From Fidelibacterota bacterium (lineage in GTDB: Bacteria > Fidelibacterota > Marinisomatia > Marinisomatales > UBA1611), in NCBI GenBank assembly GCA_018658715.1, contig JABHUQ010000028.1:5663-69662 (forward strand): DNA of 64,000 nt. Reading direction: 5' to 3'. Each line of letters begins with the position of its first letter. Position 1 is the stretch's first letter. Positions 29,315 through 60,338 of the stretch are shown piece after piece. The notes below the pieces were generated by a model. It was given only the letters and a program-made list of their open reading frames with translations. It did no database searches and had not been told where the DNA came from. The position numbers were made by a program, and so were the translations under genes.

Positions 29315-30391
29315 TTATTCAGAATCTAAATTTGTCAAATAGTCAACCACCCCACTTGTTTCAGATCGATAAATACAACGACCCATTTTGGATGATATTT
29401 GATAGTCATATAATCGATCGTAATAAAGGGTCAGTAAATCATGTATCCAATCATAATGTGAGTGAGATTTAGGATCTAAAAATGCATTATCAATCTTTGT
29501 GCGAATACTCATAAATAATTCATGCCCTAGTCTTTTCTGAATTTTAAATAATGATGAACGAAGGGATAAAAGTAAATCTGTCTTTGGTACGCCTACATTT
29601 AAAGGTTTATCAATATATTCTATTTGTATATTCTGAATACGTTCTTCTAGGGGAATATCAATTAAAACCCATTTTGATAATCGCATACGTCCATACCAAC
29701 TATTAGGAATAGCAACACGTCCAATGGTACGAGATTCATCTTCCAAAAATAATGTATTGCCACTATGGTTTAGATAATGAATAGCTAAAGAATGTTCGAA
29801 ATTAATTTGTGATGGTTGTGCTGAATCTGTTTTCCCGAATGCAGACCCACGATGATTTGCTAATTCTTCCAAGTCGATGGTAGAAATCAATCGATTCAAA
29901 ATATTGGTTTTCCCTGTCCCTGTTTTTCCGCCCAAAATAATCCATTTTTTATTATCATTTTCTGCTGAATCCAATATGTTAATAGCGGTATTTCTTAAAA
30001 GTTTATAACCACCCGAAATCCTTTTAACATTTAATCCCCTGTCTCGAAGCCAAGTTTGAGCAATCTTTGATCGTAATCCACCTCGTGCGCAATAGATCCT
30101 TGTCGTTGGGTGATCTTGGATAAAATCTATCCACGTATGAATTCGAATTTCTTTAATCTCGTTGGAAACTAATTTATGACCCATCTTTATTGCAGCATCT
30201 TTTCCTTGATGCTTATATGTTTTGCCTACTCGTGCACGCTCATCATCCTTCAATATGGGGAAGTTAACACTTTGTGGAAATGCCCCTTTTTTGAATTCCC
30301 CAGGAGATCGTAAATCAATTAATGGAATCTTTTCTTTAAGAATTTGATAATATGGGGATATTCTATCCATGAGAGGATTGAAATTATTCAA
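29315..30391 (-). CDS. selU: tRNA 2-selenouridine synthase
   Basis: Rhodanese active site YCARGGLRS, Walker A GGKTGTGKT, and HRGSAFG and EDESR motifs. The protein is collinear with E. coli YbbB/MnmH. Confidence 0.9.
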   Translation of the reverse strand: MNNFNPLMDRISPYYQILKEKIPLIDLRSPGEFKKGAFPQSVNFPILKDDERARVGKTYKHQGKDAAIKMGHKLVSNEIKEIRIHTWIDFIQDHPTTRIYCARGGLRSKIAQTWLRDRGLNVKRISGGYKLLRNTAINILDSAENDNKKWIILGGKTGTGKTNILNRLISTIDLEELANHRGSAFGKTDSAQPSQINFEHSLAIHYLNHSGNTLFLEDESRTIGRVAIPNSWYGRMRLSKWVLIDIPLEERIQNIQIEYIDKPLNVGVPKTDLLLSLRSSLFKIQKRLGHELFMSIRTKIDNAFLDPKSHSHYDWIHDLLTLYYDRLYDYQISSKMGRCIYRSETSGVVDYLTNLDSE

Positions 30392-30444: not shown

Positions 30445-30521
30445 TGGTACGCCCGGGAGGATTCGAACCCCCAACCTTCTGGTCCGTAGCCAGACACTCT
30501 ATCCAGTTGAGCTACGGGCGC
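30445..30521 (-). tRNA. tRNA-Arg (anticodon ACG), CCA encoded
   Basis: Manual cloverleaf. The acceptor is GCGCCCG/CGGGCGT, the anticodon loop is CTACGGA, the T-arm is GGTTCGAATCC, and the 3' end is ACCA. Confidence 0.9.
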
Positions 30522-30606: not shown

Positions 30607-32397
30607 CTATTTTAATAATAGTGCTTTTTTTGTATCAAATCCATTCGGTGTTTGAATTTGGATAAAATACATACCTGATGCATGCGATGATGCATCCCAT
30701 TGAAATGAATGATCACCAGCTTGTATGAGTGATTTATCTGCTAATACTTCTACTTCTTCGCCTAAAGTATTATAGACAGCAACTTTTCCTTTAGTATCAA
30801 ATGGTATTGAGAAGGAAATAGATAATACAGGATTGAATGGATTTGGGGTCAAATTCCATATTTCTGGACGAGATGCTAAAGCAATAGATATAGCTTCTGT
30901 CTTATCTAGGCGTTTCATATTTATTTCTTGTCCAAATTCATTACTTACGACTAAATCTTTTAAATCTATCGCATGAATAGAAGAAGCCACATCGAAAGAT
31001 ATAGATTCTATAGCATTTGTCCCTGTTTCATCAAATGCTAAATAAGTAATTCGTCCATGTTTTATCATTGAATGCAAAGACCAACCTTCAGGAAGTATTA
31101 ATCGATTATTTAAATTGTAAGATTCGGGAATTGAAAATTGAAAACCAGAAATCATTTCCACACTAGATATTGTAGCAACTTTCTCTAATCCATTTTGCTG
31201 TACGCTTAAAATGCCATCAAGTGGTTGCCCCCCAGGTGAAATACCACTCCATGTATTATTCATAATTCCTTGTACAAGAGTAACAATATCAATTACGTTT
31301 ATTATTTCATCACCATTCATATTTGCAACATCAACGTGGCATCCCATTGATTCTTCAGTTAGAATAAAATCAACTAAAAACAAAACATCAAAAACATTAA
31401 TGACAGGATTTCCATTTACATCTGTATCACCATTAAGATTACCTGTTACATAAACATTATTATTGCACGGGTCACATTCGTTGCCAATAAGATCATTATC
31501 TTCATCATCCTGAGATGGATTATAATCTTGGGGACAGTTGTCTACCCAATTCATGACACCGTCATCATCAACATCAGGATTCATATCATCTATATATACA
31601 TCAGAAACTTGTAATATTTGTTTTGTTGTATTGTTCTGTACAATAGCAATTATTTTAACATTATCTTGAACCCAGCTATCGGATAATGTAAAAGAGCCAT
31701 TGAACGTTTCAGTCTCTCCTGAAGATGAAATATTGACTGAATTAGGGTCTTCCCAGATTCGAGCAACATTTCTAGCATTATGCCATTGACTAGCGGAAGA
31801 CCAATAAGAATATATTTCATCTTCTACAATAAATACATGAACAATATCATTTGAAGATGGATGGTCTGAATCCAAGGAAATAGTTATGTCGTAAGTCACA
31901 TCATTATCAAGTATCATACCATTAATTTGAATTTCATAAGGTGTTTCATCACCCAACATCGAATTAAATATTGGTAGAAAAGTATTATACATTGGCTCCC
32001 AATTACCACTGGGATATCCACCAACAGTATTTTGAACTCCATTCCATTGAGTATGAGGTATTCCCCCTACTCCATAATAACCTGATCTTTGACTATATTC
32101 AGATGGGAGATCAAAATCTGAGCTCCCAGGGGTATAACTAGGGCTATGCCATTCAACGCTAAAAAGTGTTTCTGGGAATTCGTTTAATAAAGTATCTATC
32201 GCAAAACTTGCGCTTGGACAATATGGTCATTGAAGACCAGTAAAATCTTCTACAAAAACACGTTGAGATGATCTTGCAGCATTTTCTACAATTTCTCTTA
32301 AGTTATTGATGGGAACTTCTTGATTATTAACAAGAATTGTTTGCTCAGCCAACATAAATGATATGGCTGCAATCATAAATAGAATTATTTTTTTCAT
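30607..32397 (-). CDS. Secreted thioredoxin-fold protein with an in-frame TGA (candidate Sec, UxxC), TSP3/dockerin-like Ca-binding repeats and a T9SS C-terminal sorting domain
   Basis: The frame is open from the ATG at 32397 to the stop at 30607 except for the TGA at 32227..32229. The ATG has an AAGGGGGA SD and encodes the signal peptide MKKIILFMIAAISFMLA. The TGA context is FTGLQ-TGA-PYCP. The C-terminus (NPFNPVLSISF...SGMYFIQIQ...KKALLLK) is a typical Por secretion tail. The ORF track only called 30607..31992. Confidence 0.65.
32200..32212 (-). promoter_or_regulatory. Small hairpin 14 nt 3' of the in-frame UGA (candidate bacterial SECIS apical stem-loop)
   Basis: The mRNA reads CGCAA-GUU-UUGCG, a 5-bp stem with a G/U-containing loop, with imperfect flanking pairing. 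It is weak on its own. Confidence 0.3.
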
Positions 32398-32459
32398 AAT
32401 AGGAATCCCCCTTGTTTACTTAACTAAAATTGTGAAAGAAATTAGATGGTATATGCATT

Positions 32460-34259
32460 TTAAAACAAGGATGTTAATTCCAGTTTAAAACCATCTGTAA
32501 ATGGTTCTATCTTACGGCATACTCCATTACTGCAAAGGAGTCCACCCTTTTGGCTGCCGTACATCAATGAAAGTCTATGACTTGAATTAATGTTATACAC
32601 AAACTCAATGGCTGCCCAAGTATTTTCTAAACTCATAAAATTTCCAAGAAATGTTTCAAAGAATGTTTCAGTATCAATGGCATATGGATCAAATGTATCA
32701 TCATAAGATACGCGATCAAATAATAGAGCAACGGACCAAGTTGGAGCATTCCCTAAACCAATCGAAAAGAAATGATTATACTGTTTTGGCCGTTCAGTAT
32801 GAACATCTGTTTCATAATCGTAAGAGTCAAAATCTGATTTTAGACTATCATATTTTACAATACTTGATGAGTCAGAATAACTCCACGTTCCACGTAATAA
32901 TTCCTGATATTCCCATTTAATATTAATATTGATTCCATTAGAAAGATAATATGAGAAAGAAGTGGGAATCGTAAGTGCTTCTTGATATTTATACTCCAAT
33001 AAATGATTATGCTCGTCATACTTGTTTGTAAAAATATCTGTTACGTCTTTGGTATTTGCGCCAGAAATAACATAGTGTAACCTGTCGCTAAAAGCATAAC
33101 CATTTAGCTCTAAATATAATTCTTGATAAGGTAAACCCTCAGCCGATTTAATAGGTAGCCAAGAATCATTATTCGTTTTAAACCATGTATAGTCTGGTCT
33201 GGACTCCCAAATATGGGTTCGACTGGAAGTAGCATAATGAAGAAATAATGTAGTCCCGAATATACCCGGACCTGTTAAATCTAATTGGTACCCTAAATTA
33301 TTATTGAAATCAAATTGGTGTGATATTCGTCCAAGCAATGATGTAGAATGGAGCAAATTCGAAATAGCTGGTTGTTGATAATCTAAAGCTAACCCATAAT
33401 TATTAATAAAATCCCAACGAGTAAATGCGTCAGGTGCAAGATGCGCAAAACTATAACGAATATAATCTGCAGATAAAGTCCAATCTTGGAGAAAAGAAGT
33501 TATATTTGCATAAAACCCGCTTCCGCTTCTAGCGAAATCTAAATCATTATATCCAGCAGATTGTTTATCAGCATATTCAAGGAAGAGCTCAAAATTGGGA
33601 CCTGTGTAAGTAACCCGCCCTCCTAATATTCGATGTACTACATGGACTGTATCTGGGAAATTCCAAGATGGTAACGTATGTTTTTCTCTCGATTGTAAAT
33701 AGGAAAGACCCATTTCGAAGGAATCACGATACCAATCAATATTTGTTCCCATGACTGAATGATTCGTTTCATAATTATGTGAATAATTGTTAAAGCCAGA
33801 ATAAGTAGGTGATGATTTCCATAGTGTGGAATAGCCAGTTAATAAATTCCATTGAATATTATTCTTATCTAATGAAAAGTATAAGCCACGAATGCCATTA
33901 TCAAAATCAACTGATTGATCTTCATTCTGATTTAATACAAGACCCCTTCCCCATATTTCATAAATATCACCAAGTTTTAATGATATTGGACCATCCGAAT
34001 AATCAAAGCGTATTTTTCGTAAACCATCTTGATAAAATCCTAACTCGGGTGGTTTACTAAATTCGAATTGTGACCAAATAGTAAACTTATCGAGACGAAT
34101 ATTTGTATTAATCAAAGATTCTGAATAATTAAACCCAGTTTTACTTTCGCCATATCTTAACTGACTACTACCTGAGAATTTAATTTGTGCAGAAAGGATA
34201 GATGATATAATAATAAATAAAAAGGAATAAAGAATAATTGTACTATTAATTATTTTCAT
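32460..34259 (-). CDS. Putative outer-membrane beta-barrel protein
   Basis: 599 aa with a signal peptide and aromatic-rich alternating strands. The C-terminal residue is Phe (ELTSLF). The start abuts the TlpA stop. Confidence 0.5.
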   Translation of the reverse strand: MKIINSTIILYSFLFIIISSILSAQIKFSGSSQLRYGESKTGFNYSESLINTNIRLDKFTIWSQFEFSKPPELGFYQDGLRKIRFDYSDGPISLKLGDIYEIWGRGLVLNQNEDQSVDFDNGIRGLYFSLDKNNIQWNLLTGYSTLWKSSPTYSGFNNYSHNYETNHSVMGTNIDWYRDSFEMGLSYLQSREKHTLPSWNFPDTVHVVHRILGGRVTYTGPNFELFLEYADKQSAGYNDLDFARSGSGFYANITSFLQDWTLSADYIRYSFAHLAPDAFTRWDFINNYGLALDYQQPAISNLLHSTSLLGRISHQFDFNNNLGYQLDLTGPGIFGTTLFLHYATSSRTHIWESRPDYTWFKTNNDSWLPIKSAEGLPYQELYLELNGYAFSDRLHYVISGANTKDVTDIFTNKYDEHNHLLEYKYQEALTIPTSFSYYLSNGININIKWEYQELLRGTWSYSDSSSIVKYDSLKSDFDSYDYETDVHTERPKQYNHFFSIGLGNAPTWSVALLFDRVSYDDTFDPYAIDTETFFETFLGNFMSLENTWAAIEFVYNINSSHRLSLMYGSQKGGLLCSNGVCRKIEPFTDGFKLELTSLF

Positions 34260-34756
34260 TATTGCATTAATAAAGATTTAATTCGTTCTTCAACTACGAT
34301 TTCATCACCTGGAATATATCCTTGATGACGCCAAGCAATTGTCCCATCTTTATTAATAAGAATCATGGTTGGTAGTAAAACAGCATTAAATATTTTCGAT
34401 ATTTGTTTATTAGGATCAACTCCAACTTTAAACGAATAATTTTTTGATCGAATATATCCTTTAACCTTGGATAAACTTTTAGGAGAATCTTGATTAATAG
34501 TTAATACATTAAACCCTGAGTCTTGATAAGCTTTATGAAAATTATCTTGATGTAACATCGCCTTTTTACATGGACCGCACCATGTTGCCCAAAAATCAAG
34601 TAAAACAGGTCCTTCTTCAAGTAACTCGTACAATGATATCCGCTCCCCTGAAAGAAGCTTAACTTTAAAGTCTGGTACTTTCTCAACATTCACAGTGGTT
34701 GCGAATGTGAATGAAATCGCTAAAATGTATGCGATTCCAGCAAAATATTTTTTCAC
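34259..34756 (-). CDS. TlpA/ResA-family periplasmic thiol:disulfide oxidoreductase
   Basis: 165 aa with a signal peptide and a thioredoxin motif, LLDFWATWCGPCKK. Confidence 0.88.
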   Translation of the reverse strand: MKKYFAGIAYILAISFTFATTVNVEKVPDFKVKLLSGERISLYELLEEGPVLLDFWATWCGPCKKAMLHQDNFHKAYQDSGFNVLTINQDSPKSLSKVKGYIRSKNYSFKVGVDPNKQISKIFNAVLLPTMILINKDGTIAWRHQGYIPGDEIVVEERIKSLLMQ

Positions 34757-34772: not shown

Positions 34773-36074
34773 TTATAAAATTGGATCTAAAAACCTTCTT
34801 AGATCTAACTCATTAACGAACTTAATTGTGACATTACTCAAATTTTCTACCGCATTAACGGGTAATGTAAATTCATAGGTAATGGGAATTGTAACAGTTT
34901 CCATTGCTATTTGCATAGACCAACCGCCCATTGTGAAATTAATCAACGGAGAAAATTGGTGGCTAGGAATATAAAGGACTTTTGAACTAGAACGAGAATG
35001 CCAATATGAATCAGGTGTATCTGTGAGAACAACAGATGGGTTTCTGGATTTATCAAAAAATTGAATGACAGGTATTTTTCGATAGGTTTCAGAAATAATA
35101 TCATCGATTAAATATTGCGGAAAGTTGAATTTATCCCTACTATAATAAAATACAGTTAAGCTACCGTCTTCTTGCAACCCTGTATAAGGAAGAGTAGTTA
35201 GCATTTCATGAATAATATTTTCCTTCAAGGAGTATTCCACCTTAAACTGAACCGTAATAAGTTGTTCGTCATCTTCATGATAAATAAAATTAGGTCGTTC
35301 CAGTTTAACTTGATAGGGATTAGAAATTAATTGGTCTAATACAGTTTCCAATAGAGCTGAGTTTTGATCATTCTCAGGATTAACATCAACCTTTTGCTCA
35401 GCCGTAAAGTCCATTGACCATTCTCCAACAGATTGTTGTACAGTTTTTTTCTTTTTTGCGTCTTCTTCCCTTTTCTTAGCACCTAAAACAAAATCCATGC
35501 TTGCTTCCAATTCAAGGATTGCAGCATCTAATGAACTGGCGACTCTTTCAGATTCAATAGAAACTTTTGGTGGAAGTATTTTTTGTGGTCTAACGGAAAT
35601 ATCCGGGAAAGGAGATTTAGCTTTATCTACTTGTTTTGGTAAGTAATCAGCCAACATTCCTTGGACAGTTGCTCCTACTTGATCTTTTAATGTCGGAAGA
35701 GCAGAATAAAAGCCAGAAGCAGATTTGTTCCCAACTTCTTCCCATGTAGCAATATCAATTAATTGCATAGTTACAGATATGTCATCAAGCTTCCTATTGA
35801 ATTTCCCAAGTAATAATAAATTATTTGATCCACGAGGTTGCTTCAATAATTCAGAACGATTATTCATAATATATTCTAAATCATCATTATTTTGAATTCG
35901 TAATGTTGACTCATTCTTTAATTTATCTTTGACAATTTCGGATAAACCGGGTCCAATCCATTCAACAGAAGCATCATTTTGCACATTGTCAAATGGAAGT
36001 AGGTAGAAATACACAAGAGGGTCCCGTGCAAATAGTGTTGACAATAAAAGAAGATGTATTAAGATTTTGTTCAT
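34773..36074 (-). CDS. Hypothetical exported protein
   Basis: 433 aa with a signal peptide. The N-terminal LLPFDNV...WIGPGLSE resembles TolB-N/CsgG-like lipoprotein modules. The assignment is weak. Confidence 0.4.
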   Translation of the reverse strand: MNKILIHLLLLSTLFARDPLVYFYLLPFDNVQNDASVEWIGPGLSEIVKDKLKNESTLRIQNNDDLEYIMNNRSELLKQPRGSNNLLLLGKFNRKLDDISVTMQLIDIATWEEVGNKSASGFYSALPTLKDQVGATVQGMLADYLPKQVDKAKSPFPDISVRPQKILPPKVSIESERVASSLDAAILELEASMDFVLGAKKREEDAKKKKTVQQSVGEWSMDFTAEQKVDVNPENDQNSALLETVLDQLISNPYQVKLERPNFIYHEDDEQLITVQFKVEYSLKENIIHEMLTTLPYTGLQEDGSLTVFYYSRDKFNFPQYLIDDIISETYRKIPVIQFFDKSRNPSVVLTDTPDSYWHSRSSSKVLYIPSHQFSPLINFTMGGWSMQIAMETVTIPITYEFTLPVNAVENLSNVTIKFVNELDLRRFLDPIL

Positions 36075-36120: not shown

Positions 36121-37827
36121 TTAACCACATCCAATTTTAGAGGTTTGAAATCCCTTTTCAATTTTTTTCCATGAATCTCTCAATGCTACGGACCGATTAA
36201 ATACAAAATGTTCAGGTGAACTGTCAATATTATCCAAACTAAAATAACCCAATCGTTCAAATTGATAAAATTCACCTACGGATGCTTTCTTCATTTCTGT
36301 TTCAATAAAGCATGTCTTTTTAAGAACAAGTGAATCAATATTTAATGTATCATTAATATTATCTGACTTGCTAGGGTTTGGCTCTAAAAAGAGTCTGTCG
36401 TATAGCCGAACTTCCGCTTCAATATTTTCTGTGGATGAAACCCAATGTATGGTTCCTTTGACTTTCCGTCCATCGGGAGATGATCCTCCCCGTGTTTCGG
36501 GATCATAAGTACAATGCAATTCAATAATTTGTCCTTTGCTATTTTTTATTACATCAACACATGTAATGTAAAAAGCATATCTTAATCTTACTTCTCTGCC
36601 AGGAGCTAAACGAAAATATTTGCGAAATGGCTCTTCCATAAAATCACTTCGTTCAATATATATTTCTTTAGTAAAAGCTATTCGCCTTTTACCAGCAGAT
36701 TCATCTTCGGGGTTATTTATTGCTTCTAAATAATCAATCTCATTTTCCGGGAAATTAGTAATTACAATTTTCAATGGTTCAATCACACCCATAACTCGAT
36801 TAGCTTTTTTATTGAGATCTTCTCTTAAACTATGCTCTAAAAGATTCATTTCAACGACATTATCTCGTTTTGCTACCCCTACTTTTTCTGCGAAATTACG
36901 AATAGATTCCGGGGTATATCCTCTACGTCTTAAACCTGAAATTGTGGGCATTCTTGGATCATCCCAACCTGAAACATACCCATCGTCAACGAGTTTTTTT
37001 AACCATCTTTTAGACATAATTGTAAAATTTAAGTTTAATCGAGCAAATTCTATTTGCTGCGGATGATATGTATCAAGTTGATTTAAATACCAGTCGTATA
37101 AAAGTCTATGGTCTTCAAATTCTAATGTACATATGGAATGGGTAATACCTTCTAGGGAATCCTCTAATCCATGAGCCCAATCATACATTGGGTAAATGCA
37201 CCATTTATCCCCAGTCCGATGATGATTAGCTTTCAAAATACGATACATAACTGGGTCTCTCATATTCAAATTAGGATGACTCATATCAATTTTCGCCCGT
37301 AATGTGCGGCTTCCATCTTCAAAATCACCATTTTTCATTTGAGTAAATAGGAGAAGACTTTCATCCACGGTTCTCTCTCTGAAAGGACTATCAGTGCCAG
37401 CTTCTTTTAGATTACCACGAGTTGCTCTAACTTCATCAGCTGATAGGTCACAGACATAAGCTTTCTTTGATTGAATGAGAAATACAGCGAATTCATACAT
37501 TTGATCAAAATAATCTGATGCATAAAATAACCTATCTCCCCAGTCAAAACCCAACCAGGAAACATCTTCTATAATTGCTTTGACATATTCATCTTCTTCT
37601 TTAATTGGATTTGTATCGTCGAATCGTAAATTACATAATCCATTATATTGGTGTGCTAGGCCAAAATTCAAACAAATTGATTTTGCGTGACCAATGTGCA
37701 GATATCCGTTAGGTTCTGGTGGAAATCTTGTATGAACGTTTTTATTGAATTTTCCAGATAAATTATCTTCATCAATAATTTTTTGAATAAAATTCTTATA
37801 TGGTTTTTCAGCTTCCATTATTATCAC
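36121..37827 (-). CDS. glnS: Glutaminyl-tRNA synthetase
   Basis: Motifs [17 protein letters not shown] and IMSKR, with a C-terminal anticodon-binding beta-barrel region. The protein is 568 aa. Confidence 0.93.
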
Positions 37828-39247
37828 TTTCTATGATTGGGAAATGGTTGATAGCATAGTTTAATCGAGAAATACATACTTTCATCCCTAACAATTCCAT
37901 GATTGAAAAAAGTGAAGGACCCCCAGAAACACCGCTAATAGCCAACCGTGTGGGTTGAATGATTTTTCCTATTAATATTTTATTTTCCTCAGCATATTTT
38001 TTTATAATGCCTTCAATTGATGTCGAATTCCATTCTGACAATCTATTCAATTCAATTAATAAGGATTCAATTATCTGTGTTGTAGTGTCTGGTTTCCAAC
38101 ATTTTCTCATAGTTTTTTTATCAAATTGATTAGGATTATTAAAGAAATAATGAGAAGAATCTATGAAGTCAACAATAGTTTTTGATCTTTGTTTTAATAA
38201 ATTAATAACATTCAACACATAAGGTGTATCAAAATTGGAGCCCCAGGATGGATTAAGCTGTTTAATATGATTGTAAATAGAATTTGATGGTAATATCATA
38301 ATATGTTGAGCACTTATCCAATTCAGTTTTTGAATATTGAATACAGCTGATTTTTTCTGAACTCGTTTTATATCAAATTGAGCAATTATATCATCAACGG
38401 AAAATATATCTTGCTCCGTTCCAGGATTCCAGCCTAATAATGCTAAATGATTTAATAAAACATCTGATGTATACCCAAGATCTTGATATGTTTGTACACC
38501 CGTAGCGCCATGCCGTTTACTAAGACGCTTTTTATCTGCGCCAAGAATCATTGGTAAATGAGCAAAAATAGGTATAGAATAATTTAATGCTTCATAAATA
38601 TAAATTTGTTTCAATGTGTTGGCGACATGATCTTCCCCTCTAATTATGTGAGATATTTCCATATCATGATCGTCAACTACAACGACGAGATTATATACTG
38701 GCCTTCCATCAGATCGGGCAATAATAAAATCATCAATTTCAGAATTATCTACTTTAATAGAACCATAAATTTCATCAGAAAAAGATACAATTCCTTCTTT
38801 TGGTGTTTTTAGTCGAATAGTAAATGGAGATTTATTATCTAGTTTAGCTTGAATTTCATTTTCTGAACGATTCCTCCATATTTCTGGATAGAAAAATGAA
38901 CCATCTTTAGATCGGTAGGAATCTAATTCATCTTTAGATGCAAAGCAGCGATACGCCTGCCCTGATTCTAATAATGTTTGAATAGCGGCTAAATAAAGGT
39001 CAGTACGTTTTGACTGAAAAATAAGTTCATCATCCCAATCGAGCCCCAGCCATTTCATTGATTGGCAAATTTGTTCTGTGAATTTATCTTTTGAACGAAG
39101 TGTATCTGTATCTTCAATACGAACTAAAAAAGAGCCATTATGATGTTTGGCGAAGAGCCAGTTGAATAATGCGGTTCGAGCACCCCCGAGATGAAGTTGG
39201 CCGGTTGGGCTTGGTGCAAATCGAACTCGTAGTTTAGAATTGGCCAT
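37808..39247 (-). CDS. gltX: Glutamyl-tRNA synthetase
   Basis: Motifs [22 protein letters not shown] and KLSKRHG. The protein is 479 aa. Confidence 0.93.
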
Positions 39248-39258
39248 TTATAAATTTG

Positions 39259-39347
39259 CGGAGGCGGTAGGATTCGAACCTACGAGGGGCGCGAACCCCT
39301 GCTGGTTTTCAAGACCAGTGCATTCAGCCAGACTCTGCCACACCTCC
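39259..39347 (-). tRNA. tRNA-Ser (anticodon UGA), long variable arm, no encoded CCA
   Basis: Manual fold. The acceptor is GGAGGTG/CGCCTCC, the anticodon loop is CTTGAAA, the variable arm is GGGGTTCGCGCCCC, and the T-arm is GGTTCGAATCC. Confidence 0.88.
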
Positions 39348-39361
39348 ATTTTGTTTATTTG

Positions 39362-39451
39362 CGGAGAGGGAGGGATTCGAACCCTCGAAGAGGCTATAAA
39401 CCCCTTACTCACTTAGCAGGCGAGCGCCTTCAGCCACTCGGCCACCTCTCC
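39362..39451 (-). tRNA. tRNA-Ser (anticodon GCU), long variable arm, no encoded CCA
   Basis: Manual fold. The acceptor is GGAGAGG/CCTCTCC, the anticodon loop is CTGCTAA, and the T-arm is GGTTCGAATCC. Confidence 0.88.
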
Positions 39452-51360: not shown

Positions 51361-52407
51361 TTAAATATTACTGATTGCCCAAATTAAGTAGGTTAGGTAT
51401 ACGCCAATAAGAAACATACCAGAATATTTACCAATTTTCCATTTTCTAACTAAAAGAATAAACAAAACGACAAGTACAGATGCGAAAAGAAGAATTACTG
51501 AACTGAATAGATTCTCTTTACCTACCACTAATGGTCCGTCCGTTAATAATAAAATAATCATCCACGGAATACCAAGTCCAATCAGAATATCAAAAATATT
51601 TGATCCAAGTGCGTTACTTATAGCCATGCCCCCTCTTCCTTGACGAGCCACTATTATTGAAGATATTAAATCTGGTATAGATGTGCCAATAGCCAATACG
51701 GTTAATGCTATAATAGCTTTTGGAATATGTAAAATATTAGAAATCATTACTGCCGATTCAACGAGAACCCAGCTCAATCCACCAATAAAAATAATTGAAA
51801 TAAAAAAGTTGAATATATAATGTCTTTCAGAAAGGAAAAATTTTGATAATAAAATATCAAATGGTTTAAAAATAAGCATCCAACTTGAACTAAAAGAATC
51901 GCTATTATTTTCTAACTCATCTTGGCTATCATCCTCATATTTAAGAATTTTCCTCCAGTTCATGACAGACACAACATAAATAATATAAACTATAATAAAG
52001 GCTCCTGCTTCAACCATACTTATTTGGCCATCTGAAAATGCCCATAATAAAAATATAATTGAGGTTGAATAAAAAATAGAATCTCTTAATACAGGTTGCC
52101 ATGTTAAAATAGTGCTTCTTACCATAGCAGATGCGCCAATAATTACGAGCAAATTAAATAAAGCTGACCCAACAATTGTACCAATACCAATTTCCGCAAA
52201 ATCTCCTGGTTTTAATACAGATATTATTGATACAAAGAATTCAGGTGCACTTGATCCAATAGCCATCAAAGTTGCTCCTGCTACGTCAGAAGACATTTTT
52301 AAATCTTTTGCTACTCTATCAAGCGAATCCACAAAATAATCATCACAAACGCGAGCTAACAAATAAAAAGATATAATGAGTACAATAATCAGATATACTA
52401 ATAACAT
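51361..52407 (-). CDS. Ca2+/Na+ antiporter (CaCA family, YrbG-like)
   Basis: 348 aa with two alpha-repeats, GATLMAIGSSAPEFF and LTVLAIGTSIPDL. Confidence 0.85.
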   Translation of the reverse strand: MLLVYLIIVLIISFYLLARVCDDYFVDSLDRVAKDLKMSSDVAGATLMAIGSSAPEFFVSIISVLKPGDFAEIGIGTIVGSALFNLLVIIGASAMVRSTILTWQPVLRDSIFYSTSIIFLLWAFSDGQISMVEAGAFIIVYIIYVVSVMNWRKILKYEDDSQDELENNSDSFSSSWMLIFKPFDILLSKFFLSERHYIFNFFISIIFIGGLSWVLVESAVMISNILHIPKAIIALTVLAIGTSIPDLISSIIVARQGRGGMAISNALGSNIFDILIGLGIPWMIILLLTDGPLVVGKENLFSSVILLFASVLVVLFILLVRKWKIGKYSGMFLIGVYLTYLIWAISNI

Positions 52408-52410
52408 GGG

Positions 52411-52998
52411 TTACATATTTGTTTGAAATAATTTATGTTCATTTATATACTGCCATACATCTAATGGGACCATATATCGGATTGTTTTATCTTGAGTCCA
52501 TCTTTCTCTAATAGTTGTTGATGAAATTTCAAATTTAGGAATATTGGCAAATTGGACTTTCTTCAATACCCAAGGTTGAATTCCACTAGGTTTAAATCCT
52601 GGACGAACAGCAACGATTACTTGGCATACATTCAATATTTTTTCTGCATTTTTCCACGTATGGAAATCTCCAAGCGAATCACTTCCCATAAGGTAAAATA
52701 GTTCTGGTCTTTCTAGTGTATATTGTTCTTTGATATGATTAATGGTATCAATCGAATAAGATATGCCTTTTCTTTTAATCTCCACGTCACACAGCTCGAA
52801 GTTCGGATTATTTGCTATAGCAATCTTTAACATGTTTAATCTATGATCAATCGGACTAGTAAAGATTTTGTGTGGTGGTTCATAGGCAGGAATAAACATG
52901 ATTTTATCAAATGATTCCACTTCACAAATAGTTTGCGCAATTAGTAAATGGCCTATATGTGGTGGGTCAAAAGTCCCACCGAATAAACATATTTTCAA
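52411..52998 (-). CDS. nadD: Nicotinate-nucleotide adenylyltransferase
   Basis: GGTFDPPHIGHL and ISSTTIR motifs. Confidence 0.92.
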   Translation of the reverse strand: MKICLFGGTFDPPHIGHLLIAQTICEVESFDKIMFIPAYEPPHKIFTSPIDHRLNMLKIAIANNPNFELCDVEIKRKGISYSIDTINHIKEQYTLERPELFYLMGSDSLGDFHTWKNAEKILNVCQVIVAVRPGFKPSGIQPWVLKKVQFANIPKFEISSTTIRERWTQDKTIRYMVPLDVWQYINEHKLFQTNM

Positions 52999-53756
52999 TT
53001 GGAATCCTTTTCAGATGATTTCTTTGCATTATTTATATGTTTTTGTGCTTTTTCTCTTAAGTCTTTTGATTTTATTTTATGATTGTTATCATTCCAATAA
53101 GATTCTGCAGATTCAACATTTTTTAATAGGTAATGGCTTTTAATTATACCGATGTGGGCTTCTTCAGCATAAGATGTATCATAGAAATTTGCAATAAGTT
53201 GCTCATAGGCAAAAATAGCTGATTCAAATTCTTCCATTTTAATATACAAAACACCCGTTTCTAGAATTTTAAACGCCATTTTATTTCTCAACTCTTGGAT
53301 TGCAGCCAGTGCTTCATTCACCTTCGGAGATGATGGGAAATCTTCTATAAATTCTTGATACCGCTCTAGTGCTTTTTGTGAAAATGTTTGGTCTAAATAA
53401 TATTCTGGAGATTCTATATCATATGCTTCACAAATTCTATAACGGGCTTTTTCAACATATGGGCTAAAAGCCATTTTGCGAGCTAATTTTTCAAATTCAG
53501 ATATAGCTAATAAATATTCCTTATTTAAGAAAAAGGATTCTCCTAAATAAAATTGTGCGTCATCCCCGAGGTCACTTCCTGTACCGCGTATGACAACATA
53601 TTGAAATTCTTCTTGAGCACGTAAATATTTTTCATCTTCAAGAAAAGCTTTCCCTTGATTAAATCGTGATTCTAGGTCGATGGTAACATCTGGTTTATTC
53701 CCCGAACAATTAAGTAATATTAATCCGAAAAGAACAATTGATAATAGTTTTTGCAT
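52995..53756 (-). CDS. bamD: Outer-membrane protein assembly factor BamD (TPR lipoprotein)
   Basis: Lipobox LILLNC and TPR-like repeats with YLRAQEEF, AQFYLGESFF and ARYRICEAY. Confidence 0.8.
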   Translation of the reverse strand: MQKLLSIVLFGLILLNCSGNKPDVTIDLESRFNQGKAFLEDEKYLRAQEEFQYVVIRGTGSDLGDDAQFYLGESFFLNKEYLLAISEFEKLARKMAFSPYVEKARYRICEAYDIESPEYYLDQTFSQKALERYQEFIEDFPSSPKVNEALAAIQELRNKMAFKILETGVLYIKMEEFESAIFAYEQLIANFYDTSYAEEAHIGIIKSHYLLKNVESAESYWNDNNHKIKSKDLREKAQKHINNAKKSSEKDSN

Positions 53757-53762
53757 TGTTAA

Positions 53763-54695: not shown

Positions 54696-57597
54696 ATAAA
54701 ATTTCTTGCCCTTTGACTGTTTTAATAAAATCGTCCATTCCTTTATGAATTTCTACCCCAATTGCAGTCGGGAAGTTATAAAAAGAAAACCCATTAATTC
54801 GCCATTGAATTCCAATTGATTTTTTTAGGTTGATTTCTTTATTTTGGCTCCATGCATCACCTACTTGGAACATTAGACCTAAATAACTGTTTTGAAACTG
54901 TGTCCATCCGAATAAATAATTTTGCTCAGTAAATAGCGGGAAACGAAAAGTTGTTTCAAGTAACGCAAATCGAGTCCCTTCAACACTATAAAAAGGATAC
55001 CCTTTTAACCCGGTTAAACCTCCATTAAAAAAATGAAAAAATGAATCTATTTCCGTCGATGAATAAGTAAATCCAGCTTTTGCAGATGTATTAAGTGTCC
55101 ATCGCTCAGTGTTGGGTAATTCAAAATGATAATCTCCTCCACCTTGCCACTTTAGATGATTATTTGGCGCATAAACTTCCTTTAATGATCCCGCATCAGA
55201 AAAATCGATACCTTCAATAAAATCATTCTTTTCAATATCAAGTGATGTCCAAACCTTATAGCCTTTAGATGGATTAATATTTTTATCATATCTTCTTTTC
55301 ACTAGGTCAAGATTCCAATTAAATCCAATGGATGTGCTACGATAATAATCATACGATATGCCACCTGTTAGTCCTTCTGTAGGAATGGATTCAGAAATGA
55401 ATGCTCGATATCGTTGCCAAATAGAATAAAATTCAAACTGGCTGCCATAAAATGGAAGGCGCATTCCAGCCCTAAAAAAAGTAAGTCTAAATTTTATTTG
55501 GTCATTAATTGGATAAGTCCCTTTGTATGTATATGAATCAGTAATATTTCTCGTCAAATAAAATGTTTCAAAGAATAGCGTTGGGAAAAATCGTCTGAAC
55601 TCAAAAATAAAGAATAAATCTGTATCTTTTATATTATTTACGGATGCACCACCAAATACATTAAGCCGATCTAGAATTTCATTTGAATAAAAATAAAATC
55701 CCGGCTTAGTTGTTCCATAGTCTACCATTAATTTTGGAAGAATAAACATTTTCGGGAATTGATCAACATAAGGTATTGACACTGATTCATCTTTTTTAAC
55801 AATCGGATCATTCAGGTCGCTGTTTCTTAGATAATACGTAGGCGAATACCCGATAAATTCATCTTCCATGGGAGAAATCGAATCTAAAAGTGCGATTTTA
55901 TAACCCCCATTTTCGTATAAAGAATATAGAATTTGACCATTTTGATTCATATGAGGCATAAAAGCGCCACCCAACAAGTTCGTAATGAACCCTTGAGTGT
56001 TATCGACTTCATTTTTAATGTATAAATTGTAAATACCAGTACGATCATCAGAATATAGTAATTCACCCATTTGTGTAACCTGAATATCCCGTTCATCCCA
56101 TAGACTATTATTCAATAAAATCCCTATAGAATCAGATTCCAAATCGTGATATTGAATATTTCTATAATGATGTTCTGTAACGGAGAAAACGAGTTGGTGA
56201 TTTGTAGCATTATACGAAAGAGACGAAATTATTGGCCTATGATCAAAAAATGTAATTTGTTCTAATGAGTCAGATTTTAAATGGAGTAAAAATATATTTT
56301 GTCCCCCATCATAGGTTGACAAATAAGCAATAGTGCTATCTCTTGGAATAAATACAGGTGAAAAGGATCTAGCATCATGGGTTAATCTGAGTTCTTCTTC
56401 TGTTTCTAGATTGTATTCATAAATGTCATAAAATCTAGATCCATTTTTATTTGGGAATAGCGCCTTTTTGCTATAGTAAATCATTTTTCCATTAGAATGC
56501 CATGTAGGTGCAGAATGAACTCCACCCATTAATTTCTTTTCCTCATTTGTATTAAAATCATGAAAGAAAAGTTCAGTTTGACCAAAATAGTCATTATTTC
56601 TATTTGATAACCATGCAAATCCCGTCCCCTGTGGATTCCATATTGGATGTGCATTAAAAGTCCCTATATCTTTAATAATAATACCAGTTACAGGATTAAT
56701 ATTAATGGGATTAGTTAATAGATGGTATCTAGCATTTAAAGATTCCAAAAAGCGTTCATAAATGAAAAAACCATCTTCCCCTAAAACATTATACAAGGCA
56801 TCAGAAATTGAGAATTGTAATGGAGTACTTAAATCTTCCATAATGATCCGTAATTTATCAGCCCCATATTTAACAGCAATATATTTACAAAATGCGAATC
56901 CAGTATTATAGGTGGATTCATTCCCAATACCACGTTTACCAAAAGTATTAATTTCGTCAAATGATAAGAAATTGTCATTCAAAGACCGATCGCGCAAAAT
57001 CATGTCGCGGTGAGAGTCCCAATGATCCCAATCCGCTCCTTCATACATATATTGTGCAACCCCTTCCGCCAACCAAGGGGGAACGACCGTACCAGGAACT
57101 GGAAAACTTGCTAATACATTAGGGAAACCATAAAGAACATCTTTTCTTTTTTCTTTTTCATACCCCATGAATTGAAAATATGCACCCGGAAAAGATAAAT
57201 CAGCCTTCATGGCCTTTTGCAATGAAACGATATGTGTGAATTCATGTGTAATTACATTTTGTAACCATCGATGGCTTCCCCGAAGTTCAAAATCAAGTGG
57301 AGATGCCCAAATAACCATTTTATTGTCATAATAATAAGCAGCGCCATTGGAATAATCATCTGGATCAATTAGCACTAAATGAGTCTTGGTAGGTGGCTCA
57401 TATTCATAGAGGGATGTCACGTGTGGGTAAATCGTTTCGGCTACAGTTGCAGCTTCTCGAGCTGTCTGTTCTGTTTCATCATGAAAGTGTATTTTAAAAT
57501 GGTCTGTTTCAAAGGTATGCCAATTTAACTCAGGATGATTATATTGTACCTGGGAGAACGAAATTGATAGAAGAAGTGATAATAGAAAATACTTCAT
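54649..57597 (-). CDS. Large envelope protein: HExxH metallopeptidase-like domain, TolB/PD40-like beta-propeller and C-terminal beta-barrel
   Basis: 982 aa with a signal peptide. HEFTH lies at 57232..57246. It has PD40-like repeats (PTWHSNGKMIYYS, FSPVFIPRDSTIAYLS). The aromatic-rich C-terminal region ends LLFNY. Confidence 0.6.
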   Translation of the reverse strand: MKYFLLSLLLSISFSQVQYNHPELNWHTFETDHFKIHFHDETEQTAREAATVAETIYPHVTSLYEYEPPTKTHLVLIDPDDYSNGAAYYYDNKMVIWASPLDFELRGSHRWLQNVITHEFTHIVSLQKAMKADLSFPGAYFQFMGYEKEKRKDVLYGFPNVLASFPVPGTVVPPWLAEGVAQYMYEGADWDHWDSHRDMILRDRSLNDNFLSFDEINTFGKRGIGNESTYNTGFAFCKYIAVKYGADKLRIIMEDLSTPLQFSISDALYNVLGEDGFFIYERFLESLNARYHLLTNPININPVTGIIIKDIGTFNAHPIWNPQGTGFAWLSNRNNDYFGQTELFFHDFNTNEEKKLMGGVHSAPTWHSNGKMIYYSKKALFPNKNGSRFYDIYEYNLETEEELRLTHDARSFSPVFIPRDSTIAYLSTYDGGQNIFLLHLKSDSLEQITFFDHRPIISSLSYNATNHQLVFSVTEHHYRNIQYHDLESDSIGILLNNSLWDERDIQVTQMGELLYSDDRTGIYNLYIKNEVDNTQGFITNLLGGAFMPHMNQNGQILYSLYENGGYKIALLDSISPMEDEFIGYSPTYYLRNSDLNDPIVKKDESVSIPYVDQFPKMFILPKLMVDYGTTKPGFYFYSNEILDRLNVFGGASVNNIKDTDLFFIFEFRRFFPTLFFETFYLTRNITDSYTYKGTYPINDQIKFRLTFFRAGMRLPFYGSQFEFYSIWQRYRAFISESIPTEGLTGGISYDYYRSTSIGFNWNLDLVKRRYDKNINPSKGYKVWTSLDIEKNDFIEGIDFSDAGSLKEVYAPNNHLKWQGGGDYHFELPNTERWTLNTSAKAGFTYSSTEIDSFFHFFNGGLTGLKGYPFYSVEGTRFALLETTFRFPLFTEQNYLFGWTQFQNSYLGLMFQVGDAWSQNKEINLKKSIGIQWRINGFSFYNFPTAIGVEIHKGMDDFIKTVKGQEILYGNEPTYYFSLLFNY

Positions 57598-60338
57598 TAA
57601 TGTAATATTCCAATTTTTACTATCTTTGTTACAGAATTATTAATTGTTACATTAGCGAAATACACGCCTGATTCAATATTGGCAACATCCCATATCCATT
57701 CTGAAGTTTGATTTCCACTGTAAGTTATTTTAATTTGGTTTGATGTAATAAAATAACCTGCAATATCAAAAATATTTATATCAATTGTTGATGCATCTGT
57801 CGTCTCAAATCTAAATGTTCCAACACCTTCTTTAATTGGATTAGGATAACAATAGGCGTGAATAAGTAAATCATTTTCTATGATCTGGCTTTCATAATCT
57901 AATGAAATTGTACGACTTCTTCCCCAATCACCGTTTTTATAAGTCCATTCATTTCCATTGGTATTTCGTAGCCAATCGTTGACATTATCGAATAAATATA
58001 TATTTGATTGTGAGAAAACAGCCATTTTATCTTGAATATAATTTGCTGTAACAAGCTTATCTTTCTCCATAGTTGAATAATTGTATAATAACTTACCATC
58101 ATGACTAAATATTATAAGTCGCGTAGAGTCTTTTGATTTTGCTATGATTTCAGGATACGCGTCCATTGTGATATTTCTAGAAATAATAGGATCTTGCAAT
58201 GGAATATCAATTGGAAATCCATCCATAATAGTTAATGATGAATCCATTGCATATAAATATCCTTCTGAATCCAAAGCTAAAACATCTAAACTAGCATCAA
58301 GATTAAGGTCAATACCTGAAATAGATTGAAAACTCAATTGCTCCCATTTTGTTAAAGTATTATTATCTAATATGAAGGAAACATCAGAATCAATTTGAGA
58401 AATAGATGATATATGTTTATTCCATTGTTCAACATCATTTTCTATGAACCAATCACCTAGCATAAAATTATACCTTGGAAATCGTCGCCCAGTTACAGTC
58501 CATCCTCTCACTTTTGTAAATGTGTTATTACTAATGTCATAATCATATTTAGTTTGAATAGTAGAATCTTGAATAAATTCAAATATCTCTACATTAGTAT
58601 CTAAATCACTACGAAGTTGAATAAAAAGTGAATCTGATAAAACAGGATGAAAATAGGTTCTTTTCGAAATATCATCACTAGGAGCAAACCACAGAGAATC
58701 GATTCCGCCAAATATATCAGGATGACCGTCTCCATTAAAATCATCTACAAGTCTGATATGCGCATTTTCATCTGGGAACCCATGGATAAAATCGTATAAT
58801 GGATAACTAAATGTCATAGTGTCATTTGGTTCAGAAATATCCATTATAGTAACTAAACTATTTGATCCATCATATGAATTTGAATTAGGAAACGTATTTG
58901 GCGAAAATACGGGAGGTTCATTGGCATAAGTTGGATTTGCTCGTTCATACTGTAAATTGCCTTTAAACCACATGTCGCCAAAATATCCACTAGATGGGTC
59001 ATTAAATGGAAAAATGGACATATACCCTATATCTTGAGCTCCATCTGCTTCTTCTAAATCAATCCCACGATGTGTTTTATCTGAATTAACAGAATAATCA
59101 TTTAAACCAGGATTAATAATATTTTCATCAATATGCCAAATCAGAAAACCAGATGCAGGTAAACCAAGATCATAATTTGGAATTCCAGTAATAACACCAT
59201 TACTATCTATTTCAATATTAACGGAGTCCATTAATACTTCTACAAAATTTGGATATCTATCAGTCTGTACCCATATTATATATTGCATGGAATCAATACT
59301 AACTCCATCATTTACCCAATTATTACGATTCTCAATTAGGAATGATTCATTATTGTTGAAGGATATAGATGCAATTTTGTTTTGGGATCTAGAAGGCAAC
59401 TGAACCGTACTTCCAGGATTTATGGATTGAGCATTTTCCCATCCCGCATATATTCTACTCCACGCATTTGGTGGTGCGGGTATTAACCCACGACCATTAT
59501 TTGAACCCTGATCCATAAGCCCAAATATTCCAATACCGCTCTCCCCTGTCTCTAATTCCCATAGTGGTGGTAATTCCATGGCAAATCCAATCATTAATGC
59601 GAATGTCCCTGTCAATCCGTATTGGAAATCGCAAGGTTCTTCAGAATCATTAAATATGGTTTCACCTATTTCATAAAATAAATGATTCTGTGTCTCTGGA
59701 AGAATGATTCCTTTTTCTATTATACTTTCACCAATATACCAATCTGTATTATTCAAATATGTATTTATCATATTTGGATCCACATAAGTAGATGGTATAT
59801 CTTCAGGTGTTGGGTCTAAAAATGGTAATGAAAAATCTTGCCCAATTCCTGCATGGAAAACAACAATTAAGTCATAAGAAGAAAATTCAATTGAATCAAT
59901 TTCATATGCTTTATTGGCTGCATCTTTCAATAGTTCTGTTAATCTTGATTCTTGTAATTCATCTTCATTATATGGATTGTAATAATTCATAGTATTTTCC
60001 AGTGAATAGGAATCATTATTCTCAACTGGATAAACCTGAGATTCATTTAAATCTATTCCAAACAGATTATAGGATACATTTCGATAGTATGAATCAACAG
60101 CTTTTAGCTGCGATGTAAAATAGGATTTATCATGGGGTGGTGGATCAATGGTATAATTATCACATACAAAATATGTAGAGTCTAAAAAGGAGCCGTCTCC
60201 TGATGTACTTTCATGATCATCAATTTGAAAATTAACTCGGAGAGCACATACTTTTATATTGCCCAATACATCAGCAGAAACAATTGACGTTAATAAAACC
60301 AGGCTGGTAAGTAATAACCTGGACAAAGAAATATTCAT
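57597..60338 (-). CDS. M6 (InhA)-like secreted protein with degenerate zinc site, FG-GAP repeat and T9SS C-terminal sorting domain
   Basis: 913 aa with a signal peptide. M6-like blocks are VVFHAGIGQDF, GLMDQGSNNG..PAPPNAWSRIYAGW and GIDLEEADGAQD. LMIGF occupies the position where HExxH is expected. An FG-GAP motif is DDFNGDGHPDIFGG. The CTD reads YPNPIKEG...SGVYFANV...KIVKIGILH. Confidence 0.6.
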   Translation of the reverse strand: MNISLSRLLLTSLVLLTSIVSADVLGNIKVCALRVNFQIDDHESTSGDGSFLDSTYFVCDNYTIDPPPHDKSYFTSQLKAVDSYYRNVSYNLFGIDLNESQVYPVENNDSYSLENTMNYYNPYNEDELQESRLTELLKDAANKAYEIDSIEFSSYDLIVVFHAGIGQDFSLPFLDPTPEDIPSTYVDPNMINTYLNNTDWYIGESIIEKGIILPETQNHLFYEIGETIFNDSEEPCDFQYGLTGTFALMIGFAMELPPLWELETGESGIGIFGLMDQGSNNGRGLIPAPPNAWSRIYAGWENAQSINPGSTVQLPSRSQNKIASISFNNNESFLIENRNNWVNDGVSIDSMQYIIWVQTDRYPNFVEVLMDSVNIEIDSNGVITGIPNYDLGLPASGFLIWHIDENIINPGLNDYSVNSDKTHRGIDLEEADGAQDIGYMSIFPFNDPSSGYFGDMWFKGNLQYERANPTYANEPPVFSPNTFPNSNSYDGSNSLVTIMDISEPNDTMTFSYPLYDFIHGFPDENAHIRLVDDFNGDGHPDIFGGIDSLWFAPSDDISKRTYFHPVLSDSLFIQLRSDLDTNVEIFEFIQDSTIQTKYDYDISNNTFTKVRGWTVTGRRFPRYNFMLGDWFIENDVEQWNKHISSISQIDSDVSFILDNNTLTKWEQLSFQSISGIDLNLDASLDVLALDSEGYLYAMDSSLTIMDGFPIDIPLQDPIISRNITMDAYPEIIAKSKDSTRLIIFSHDGKLLYNYSTMEKDKLVTANYIQDKMAVFSQSNIYLFDNVNDWLRNTNGNEWTYKNGDWGRSRTISLDYESQIIENDLLIHAYCYPNPIKEGVGTFRFETTDASTIDINIFDIAGYFITSNQIKITYSGNQTSEWIWDVANIESGVYFANVTINNSVTKIVKIGILH

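Follow-up and report, generated by a model that had tools for sequence, protein, structure and literature searches.

The stretch analysed here (the window) comprises 64,000 nucleotides (nt) of contig JABHUQ010000028.1 (assembly GCA_018658715.1; G+C content 33%) from a Fidelibacterota bacterium, a lineage called Marinimicrobia (SAR406) in what follows. On its minus strand, a frame of 597 codons running from 32397 to 30607 contains a single internal stop, a TGA at codon 57 (32229..32227). The gene is read here as encoding an exported 596-residue selenoprotein of the GOS_C / NF045500 family, with selenocysteine (Sec, U) predicted at residue 57; the probability assigned to this reading, which rests on comparative sequence evidence, is about 0.88. 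The TGA lies in the context ...SQRVFVEDFTGLQ-TGA-PYCPSASFAIDTLL... (in short, RVFVEDFTGLQ*PYCPSASFA), and the redox motif U-P-Y-C corresponds to TGA-CCA-TAT-TGT (32229..32218). A mechanical list of open reading frames (ORFs) begins the gene at Met136 (31992) and gives a product of 461 amino acids (aa). Translation confirmed what the initial annotation had proposed, namely that this start is internal, that the frame stays open up to the ATG at 32397 and that the TGA is its sole stop. The Shine-Dalgarno sequence that the same annotation had called strong was found (AAGGGGGA, with an 8-nt spacer), and the signal peptide that it had claimed (MKKIILFMIAAISFMLA) looks by inspection like one of the Sec translocon type. 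If the TGA is decoded, the predicted tryptic peptide across residue 57 is VFVEDFTGLQ-U-PYCPSASFAIDTLLNEFPETLFSVEWHSPSYTPGSSDFDLPSEYSQR.

TGA is also a stop codon in this organism. The stops of the 48 long ORFs in the window are TAA (35), TAG (7) and TGA (6), and each of the six ORFs that end in TGA has a further stop 2-15 codons beyond. Because every terminal TGA is soon backed by another stop, the codon can be regarded as an ordinary terminator, and a global reassignment of TGA, considered as a candidate explanation, was rejected on this usage. The TGA at 8323..8325, which the initial annotation had put forward as a genuine stop, does terminate an ORF of 78 aa.

The column occupied by the TGA was followed through the homologues. 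A protein search returned 192 of them, most of which cover 60-74% of the query, all of it beyond the TGA, and have therefore been truncated by gene callers, as the window gene was. Homologue P0001 is full length with Trp at the TGA column, presumably from a gene call that read TGA as Trp in the manner of genetic code 4, while homologues P0096, P0098 and P0099 are full length with CPYC. A scan that took one genome for each species yielded 34 related loci. Those with a taxon name come from metagenome-assembled genomes (MAGs) or single-cell genomes of Marinimicrobia/Neomarinimicrobiota (SAR406), and the others from unclassified 'uncultured bacterium' MAGs. In 32 loci all 47 Sec-type gene copies, with up to four tandem paralogues per locus and 35-84% protein identity, have TGA in the column, within the consensus ..(E/D)(E/D)FTG(L/I)x-TGA-PYCP(S/A)..; two other loci of the 34 are Cys forms. 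Cys occupies the column (..DFTGLxCPYCG..) in P0096, P0098 and P0099 and in loci L032, L034, L037 and L038; homologues have Cys, never Trp or Gly, inside a CxxC redox site. In MAG UBA7303 a Sec form (L011) coexists with a Cys form (L034). Sec and Cys forms also occur together in MAG SRP077602_co4_634, the source of both L015 and L028. In the Cys forms, GY replaces PS after CPYC and a Cys-containing loop (DDC...C) is inserted.

The segment upstream of the TGA behaves as coding sequence. Comparison of its 56 codons with those of L001 (84% identical) gives 39 identical, 12 synonymous and 5 non-synonymous codons, a pattern by which the segment is judged to be coding and under purifying selection. 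In the relatives the frames are open on both sides of the TGA, over 40 or more codons upstream and 190 or more downstream, with no frame disruption. The conserved TGA column and the coding upstream segment together exclude, in practice, a sequencing error and a decaying pseudogene. Cys in homologues and TGA in close relatives, both of which the initial annotation had suggested looking for, are thus present, and the decay that it had considered is not seen.

Further evidence comes from a hairpin resembling a bacterial selenocysteine insertion sequence (bSECIS), which starts 14 nt after the UGA with 19 nt between UGA and loop. It is common to all 45 distinct Sec-form sequences, in which alignment positions 24-28 pair with 32-36, and RNAalifold predicts precisely this stem of 5 base pairs (bp). 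Across the five core pairs, 224 of 225 cells remain paired. Pairs 25:35 (GC) and 28:32 (AU) are the same in all 45 sequences; 26:34 is CG in 41 and UG in 4; 27:33 is GC in 38 and AU in 7, with none broken; and 24:36 is CG in 28, UA in 13, UG in 2, AU in 1 and AG in 1. The covariation score of 0.231 (shuffles 0.124 ± 0.012) is reached by none of 500 shuffles and exceeds that of every slid register. Compensatory changes occur at two pairs, both of which join synonymous third-codon positions: ahead of the Ser codon AGT, GCG or GTG always goes with TTC as the Phe codon, and GCA always with TTT. The loop Ser codon is AGT in 45/45 sequences, against a genome background of 21% for AGT, 13% for GCG and 24% for TTC. 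Positions 24 and 36, which close the stem, pair in 44 of the 45 Sec forms and in none of the 4 Cys forms, the latter being a small sample. A longer lower stem was considered and rejected, its registers differing between copies and pairs 22:38 and 23:37 forming in only 6-10 of the 45.

The published bSECIS model (PMC13188914) describes a loop of 3-9 nt with a G in its first two positions, a stem of 4-16 bp, a UGA-to-loop distance of 16-37 nt and a minimum free energy (MFE) of at most -7.5 kcal/mol. The hairpin agrees with the first four of these features (loop size, G first in the loop, 5-bp stem, 19-nt spacing), and the hairpins of most relatives fold at -7 to -13 kcal/mol. Like the E. coli fdhF-type bSECIS, it is situated just 3′ of the UGA within the coding sequence, has a small loop opening with G and then U, a spacing inside the 16-37 nt range and a stem of at least 4 bp. 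It differs in the 5-bp length of the family's stem (7 in a few copies), in the absence of a bulged U and in the energy of the window copy, which falls short of -7.5 kcal/mol; recruitment of SelB by this hairpin is putative.

The family to which the protein belongs can be named. With U replaced by C, it matches the NCBIfam model NF045500, "Omp28-related selenoprotein" (model type equivalog_domain), at 535.2 bits against a cut-off of 200 (E 1e-160), residues 8-380 aligning with profile positions 5-377 of 377 across the TGA. At the level of the active site, a phmmer search against PDB sequences aligned RVFVEDFTGLQ(U)PYCPSA with KVKIELFTSPMCPHCPAA of thioredoxin MJ0307 (1fo5, E 0.016), which places Sec57 at the first Cys of the CPHC active site, as the initial annotation had expected for the first redox Cys of a thioredoxin motif. 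The UxxC selenoprotein proposed there is supported by the 535-bit match to NF045500, the TGA/Cys column, the intact frames of the relatives, the covarying hairpin and the 1fo5 alignment.

The fold was examined on an AlphaFold2 (AF2) model of P0001 (59% identical; alignment of 50 sequences), with a predicted local distance difference test score (pLDDT) of 83 and a predicted template modelling score (pTM) of 0.65. The model has a strand at 42-46, the motif at 52-55 and a helix from 56, which puts the redox motif at the N-terminus of helix alpha-1. A Foldseek search of the model against the PDB gave HBP35 (5y1a) as the top match (E 4e-11, 253 columns), further matches being the thioredoxin-like 2axo and then the Omp28 domain 2r2c (E 1.7e-4). 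An invariant G-I-P (Pro114) in the family alignment resembles the cis-Pro loop of thioredoxins, and the thioredoxin profiles TIGR00411 and TIGR02187 match weakly (E ~0.002-0.003). Downstream, the thrombospondin type-3 (TSP3) repeat profile matches thrombospondin-2 (E 3.5e-24) and the dockerin-like module has weak matches to PDB dockerins (E 0.015-0.05). The beta-sandwich region resembles the domain of the Omp28 lipoproteins (PF11551, NF033782; 2r2c). Since the protein scores below both cut-offs (PF11551 over residues 107-270, 30.3 bits against a gathering threshold of 34.9; NF033782, 53.2 bits against 150) and its signal peptide lacks a lipobox Cys, it is best described as Omp28-related and not as a member of Omp28.

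The C-terminus bears on where the protein would function. The sorting domain of the type IX secretion system (T9SS) claimed in the initial annotation passes both curated cut-offs over residues 517-592 (PF18962, 36.2 bits with gathering at 27; TIGR04183, 35.9 with a cut-off of 23), and L001 and the clusters P0097 and P0013 retain it. An alternative reading accepts the selenoprotein and keeps it in the periplasm, where it would work with its TlpA-like neighbour, the sorting domain being a non-functional fusion remnant. Most family members (~310-385 aa) indeed end after the dockerin-like module without a sorting domain, the conserved neighbour is a reductase of the periplasmic TlpA/ResA type, and the C-terminal 215 aa appear to have been acquired from a neighbouring ResA-like selenoprotein gene. 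Against it stand the conservation and the scores of the sorting domain, the presence in the window of a T9SS component of the PorV family and of other cargo, and the proven status of HBP35, the structural analogue, as T9SS cargo (PMC3120885). A periplasmic location is considered plausible but less likely, and the predicted export by T9SS is retained in the preferred reading.

Several results weigh against the decoding of UGA57 as selenocysteine. Searches for the Sec machinery (tblastn with E. coli SelA, SelB and SelD; ARAGORN for tRNA-Sec) found no selA, selB, selD or tRNA-Sec in the window and the 34 related loci, which are local fragments totalling 494 kb and are not evidence of absence. A survey published in 2016 lists three SAR406 single-cell genomes with an "orphan SelD", no Sec or selenouridine genes being detected; SelD thus exists in the lineage, and the genomes surveyed are incomplete. 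As for the hairpin, the codons for Ala-Ser-Phe-Ala dictate three of the five pairs, and a partial hairpin remains in the Cys forms. The window copy, an A-U variant, reaches only -6.0 kcal/mol over 55 nt against the threshold of -7.5; the single-sequence fold of 32150..32235 (86 nt) is unremarkable (z = 0.36 against shuffles); and a permissive Rfam search of 32050..32330 gave chance-level matches only and no SECIS family. Finally, the modelled protein is the homologue P0001 with Trp at the Sec site, and its pLDDT near the motif is ~68. Since the single-sequence energy is unremarkable, the case for a SECIS element is made on comparative data alone: of the folding check suggested in the initial annotation, the conserved covarying hairpin in 45 sequences is the part that holds, and the fold of the window copy taken singly is the part that does not. 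At its gathering threshold, Rfam finds three tRNAs only in the whole window. ORFs of SelA, SelB and SelD length at 51361-63718 were also inspected as candidates and proved to encode a TRAP permease, PorV and a Ca/Na antiporter.

Two other readings of the TGA must be compared with selenocysteine. In one of them UGA would be read as a standard amino acid (Trp, Cys or Gly), through reassignment or through near-cognate or suppressor decoding aided by the hairpin, without any Sec. The Trp in the P0001 gene call, the failure to find Sec machinery in the sequence at hand and the known ability of small hairpins to stimulate read-through speak for it; it is nevertheless highly improbable in view of the six window ORFs that end in TGA with more stops right after, the Cys (never Trp or Gly) of the homologous CxxC sites, the fit of hairpin position and loop to the bSECIS model, the selenophosphate synthesis indicated by MnmH and the curation of the family as selenoprotein. 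Just as improbable is a true stop, in a decaying pseudogene or created by a sequencing or assembly error, with only the 461-aa product from Met136 or nothing being made: it can draw on the 461-aa form that gene callers and GenBank annotate (MBT3589195.1 and others), on the normal use of TGA as a stop in the window and on the lack of Sec machinery in the sequence at hand, and it is contradicted by the TGA kept in 47/47 copies with conserved frames on both sides, by purifying selection on the 56 upstream codons, by a curated model that spans the TGA and by the loss, with a Met136 start, of the entire thioredoxin-like domain and of the signal peptide that T9SS cargo requires. Selenocysteine thus remains the preferred reading of codon 57.

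Table 1. Positions of the selenoprotein gene, its elements and domains, its neighbours and related genes (window positions unless a locus is named)
Feature	Positions	Strand	Basis or remark
Shine-Dalgarno-like AAGGGGGA	32406..32413	-	8 nt ahead of ATG 32397..32395; read from the sequence, function putative
Full selenoprotein coding sequence	30607..32397	-	596 residues plus TAG stop; Sec = residue 57 (predicted)
Signal peptide MKKIILFMIAAISFMLA (Sec-type, predicted)	32347..32397	-	Inspection of the translation; no lipobox Cys
TGA codon 57, read as selenocysteine	32227..32229	-	First position of UPYC
SECIS-type hairpin CGCAA-GUU-UUGCG	32200..32212	-	Folding and covariation; loop GUU 32207..32205
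Thioredoxin-like domain, ~residues 45-147	31957..32265	-	AF2 model of P0001, Foldseek; boundaries approximate; invariant GIP (Pro114) loop
Omp28-like beta-sandwich, ~residues 153-268	31594..31941	-	Pfam Omp28 below gathering; Foldseek 2r2c
Thrombospondin type-3 (Ca-binding) repeat, ~residues 273-311	31465..31581	-	Pfam TSP_3
Dockerin-like module, ~residues 321-380	31258..31437	-	Pfam Dockerin_1, E 0.0039, below cut-off
Module without Pfam match, residues 381-517 (137 residues)	30847..31257	-	Also present at the C-terminal end of ResA-like selenoproteins in related loci
T9SS type A C-terminal sorting domain, residues 518-596	30610..30846	-	PF18962, TIGR04183
DUF6029 protein, conserved neighbour	32460..34259	-	Pfam DUF6029, 82 bits; signal peptide; C-terminal ...LTSLF; synteny in ~25 loci
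TlpA/ResA-like periplasmic thiol-disulfide oxidoreductase, conserved neighbour	34259..34756	-	WATWCGPC
433-aa exported protein, first gene of cluster	34773..36074	-	50-94% identical in ~25 loci, always adjoining the cluster
GlnRS	36121..37827	-	20-nt overlap with GluRS
GluRS	37808..39247	-	Adjacent to GlnRS
Two tRNA-Ser genes	39258..39451		Just upstream of GluRS
tRNA-Arg	30445..30521		Between selenoprotein gene and MnmH
MnmH (SelU), tRNA 2-selenouridine synthase	29315..30391	-	NF008751, 381 bits vs cut-off 361
PorV/PorQ-family T9SS outer-membrane component	60352..61779	-	NF033709, 242 bits vs cut-off 90
T9SS-dependent M6-like inactivated metalloprotease with sorting domain	57597..60338	-	Adjoins PorV-family gene
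Paralogous 78-aa ORFs	8089..8325, 8499..8735	+	Signal peptide, poly-lysine tail
ResA-type selenoprotein in L003	13821..15317		TGA 14025
ResA-type TGAs, first set	L009 14081, L013 11331, L006 11342, L008 13904, L018 15009, L019 16586, L024 13829		
ResA-type TGAs, second set	L025 11446, L028 2007/9921/10789, L011 3974, L012 6711, L016 10024, L022 13398, L002 7649		
Tandem clusters	L006 3441..11028, L008 6032..13582, L013 3504..10961		Up to four Omp28-type and one ResA-type within ~9 kb
684-aa protein in L021	18271..20421		TGA 19765; redoxin-like ..VVVAFFAPG-TGA-PVCIPE.., long N-terminal region, T9SS sorting domain; candidate T9SS-sorted selenoprotein

The gene is embedded in a conserved neighbourhood (Table 1). 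The TlpA gene with WATWCGPC that the initial annotation had placed upstream was found, and between it and the selenoprotein gene lies the DUF6029 gene, whose product is probably an outer-membrane beta-barrel, judging from its signal peptide and C-terminal ...LTSLF. The 433-aa protein that opens the cluster matched nothing in Pfam or NCBIfam, permissive thresholds included. Downstream, MnmH is the next protein-coding gene. Its presence in the window indicates that the organism makes and uses selenophosphate, which implies SelD, and to that extent the argument that the initial annotation drew from selU stands. Its adjacency is not conserved and lends weak support: none of the related loci has an MnmH match next to the selenoprotein gene, and a functional linkage based on this proximity was rejected as coincidental. 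Beyond the cluster, the adjacent GlnRS and GluRS genes (36121..39247) and the two tRNA-Ser genes form a block whose synteny with the selenoprotein cluster holds in most loci. Elsewhere in the window, the two paralogous 78-aa ORFs, which end in an extreme poly-lysine tail (..DSKKKKKKKIKKKKWKWGKKKKKGSSD), sit in an otherwise gene-free gap of 1 kb.

In ~25 loci the gene order runs from GluRS and GlnRS through the 433-aa protein, an Omp28-type selenoprotein, the TlpA-like protein, DUF6029 and one to three further Omp28-type selenoproteins to a final gene. This last gene matches residues 285-596 of the window protein by tblastn (L003, L009, L011, L012, L013 and others) and represents a second selenoprotein family, with a signal peptide and a ResA/TlpA-like domain containing ..F(T/A)SW-TGA-(P/S/G)xC... 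Its C-terminus has TSP3 and dockerin-like modules and often the shared C-terminal module and T9SS sorting domain. None of the NCBIfam models dedicated to selenoproteins matched it, and ResA models match it only weakly. The tandem clusters of L006, L008 and L013 contain up to five Sec codons each, and L021 provides one more candidate, a redoxin-like protein with an in-frame TGA. That the lineage has other UxxC families with a conserved TGA argues, indirectly, for the decoding of UGA as Sec in Marinimicrobia.

The window and L001 depart from this order. Both have the 433-aa protein, TlpA, DUF6029 and a single Omp28-type selenoprotein bearing the sorting-domain module, and no ResA-like selenoprotein gene was found within the window. 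Over its last 215-310 residues, the window protein shares homology with the C-terminal part of the ResA-type selenoprotein of other loci (window 30607..31257 against L003 14376..15314 and equivalents). The window gene, like that of L001, may therefore be inferred to be a fusion or deletion product of neighbouring paralogues that share the TSP3/dockerin region. Across Marinimicrobia, the cluster suggests an envelope redox module. A bolder and tentative proposal, held with less than even confidence, is that Marinimicrobia carry a conserved envelope "selenoprotein island" composed of the 433-aa protein, the TlpA-like protein, DUF6029, up to four tandem Omp28-type selenoproteins and a ResA-like selenoprotein with sorting domain. 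The window gene might be a natural fusion that joins the Omp28-type Sec domain to the T9SS-sorted C-terminal module.

The selenoprotein reading is almost certainly correct and is not new, as the family was predicted in 2008 and a curated NCBI model exists. Among seven selenoprotein families newly identified in Global Ocean Sampling data, GOS_C ranked first in abundance (Zhang & Gladyshev 2008, PLoS Genet; PMC2398784), where it was described as having a thioredoxin-like fold and UxxC motif, with 74 Sec and 312 Cys sequences and a SECIS-like element predicted downstream of the TGA; no function was assigned to it there. The family is also listed in a review of 2022, and Table 1 of a 2026 review equates NF045500 with "hypothetical protein GOS_C" (UxxC, one Sec), with the status predicted, not experimentally verified. 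The window gene shares with GOS_C/NF045500 the in-frame TGA in UxxC, the marine origin and the Cys homologues, and probably the thioredoxin-like fold; its hairpin is a candidate for the downstream SECIS-like element. It differs in an extra C-terminal extension of 215 aa ending in the T9SS sorting domain, without which most members were found. A surface or extracellular selenoprotein had been presented in the initial annotation as rarely reported. The selenoprotein itself is supported and the rarity has to be qualified, since the family is already GOS_C/NF045500 and T9SS-exported thioredoxin-like proteins are known (HBP35). In the searched open-access literature, no paper was found on the taxonomic home of GOS_C in Marinimicrobia, its tandem paralogue arrays or its conserved cluster, nor any that links Omp28, T9SS or Marinimicrobia to selenoproteins or reports surface selenium use in Marinimicrobia.

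Two further comparisons help to situate the window protein. With the Sec-containing thioredoxins, thiol:disulfide interchange proteins and redoxins of the UxxC type it has in common the replacement of the first CxxC Cys by Sec and the existence of Sec/Cys homologue pairs; unlike them, its domain is divergent and fused to Omp28-like, TSP3, dockerin-like and T9SS modules. The closest characterized analogue, by structure and architecture only and on the evidence of a modelled homologue, is HBP35 of Porphyromonas gingivalis, a T9SS-secreted, surface-anchored protein that binds hemin and has thioredoxin activity in vitro (PMC2907840, PMC3120885). HBP35 (5y1a) is the best structural match and combines an N-terminal thioredoxin-like domain, a beta-sandwich and a T9SS C-terminal domain. 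In contrast to the window protein, it uses Cys (CxxC) and has no TSP3 or dockerin-like modules, the identity between the two being 15%. Searches of PDB sequences by phmmer and by profile failed to bring up 5y1a.

A mechanism can be outlined from these comparisons. UGA57 would be decoded as selenocysteine, with the hairpin acting as a bacterial SECIS that recruits SelB with Sec-tRNASec. The signal peptide would route the protein through the Sec translocon to the periplasm, and the type A sorting domain, by homology with P. gingivalis cargo, would then pass it to T9SS for display at the surface or release. There, the selenol/thiol pair of U57-P-Y-C60 may cycle via a selenenylsulfide and reduce or isomerize disulfides or reduce a small oxidized substrate, while the Omp28-like sandwich and the Ca-binding TSP3 and dockerin-like modules may bind a ligand or a partner. 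For the family, the TlpA-like neighbour may be the reductant in the periplasm.

The consequences for annotation are immediate. Near-identical proteins occur on more than 60 contigs from independent assemblies, all called as the 450-461-aa form, which is consistent with a TGA being present in every one. The GenBank entries of the P0013/P0183 cluster (MBT3589195.1, MBT3937081.1, MBT3962051.1, MBT4382419.1 and MBT7899781.1) contain only a 450-461-aa "T9SS type A sorting domain-containing protein". Public records of the window protein and its near-identical copies thus omit the signal peptide and the catalytic domain, and dozens of relatives have been shortened by annotation likewise; recognition of the Sec codon restores the true protein.

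Nothing new is added here on how selenocysteine is encoded. The gain lies in the biology of a family that has been a "hypothetical protein" since 2008 and is now placed in Marinimicrobia, within a conserved cluster that also encodes a TlpA-like reductase and DUF6029. The link to HBP35 in fold and architecture, together with the cluster context, provides a concrete and testable functional hypothesis. If the island proposal is true, an abundant deep-ocean lineage would display selenoenzymes at its surface, as Sec analogues of HBP35, and these would serve extracellular redox chemistry or the acquisition of heme or metals.

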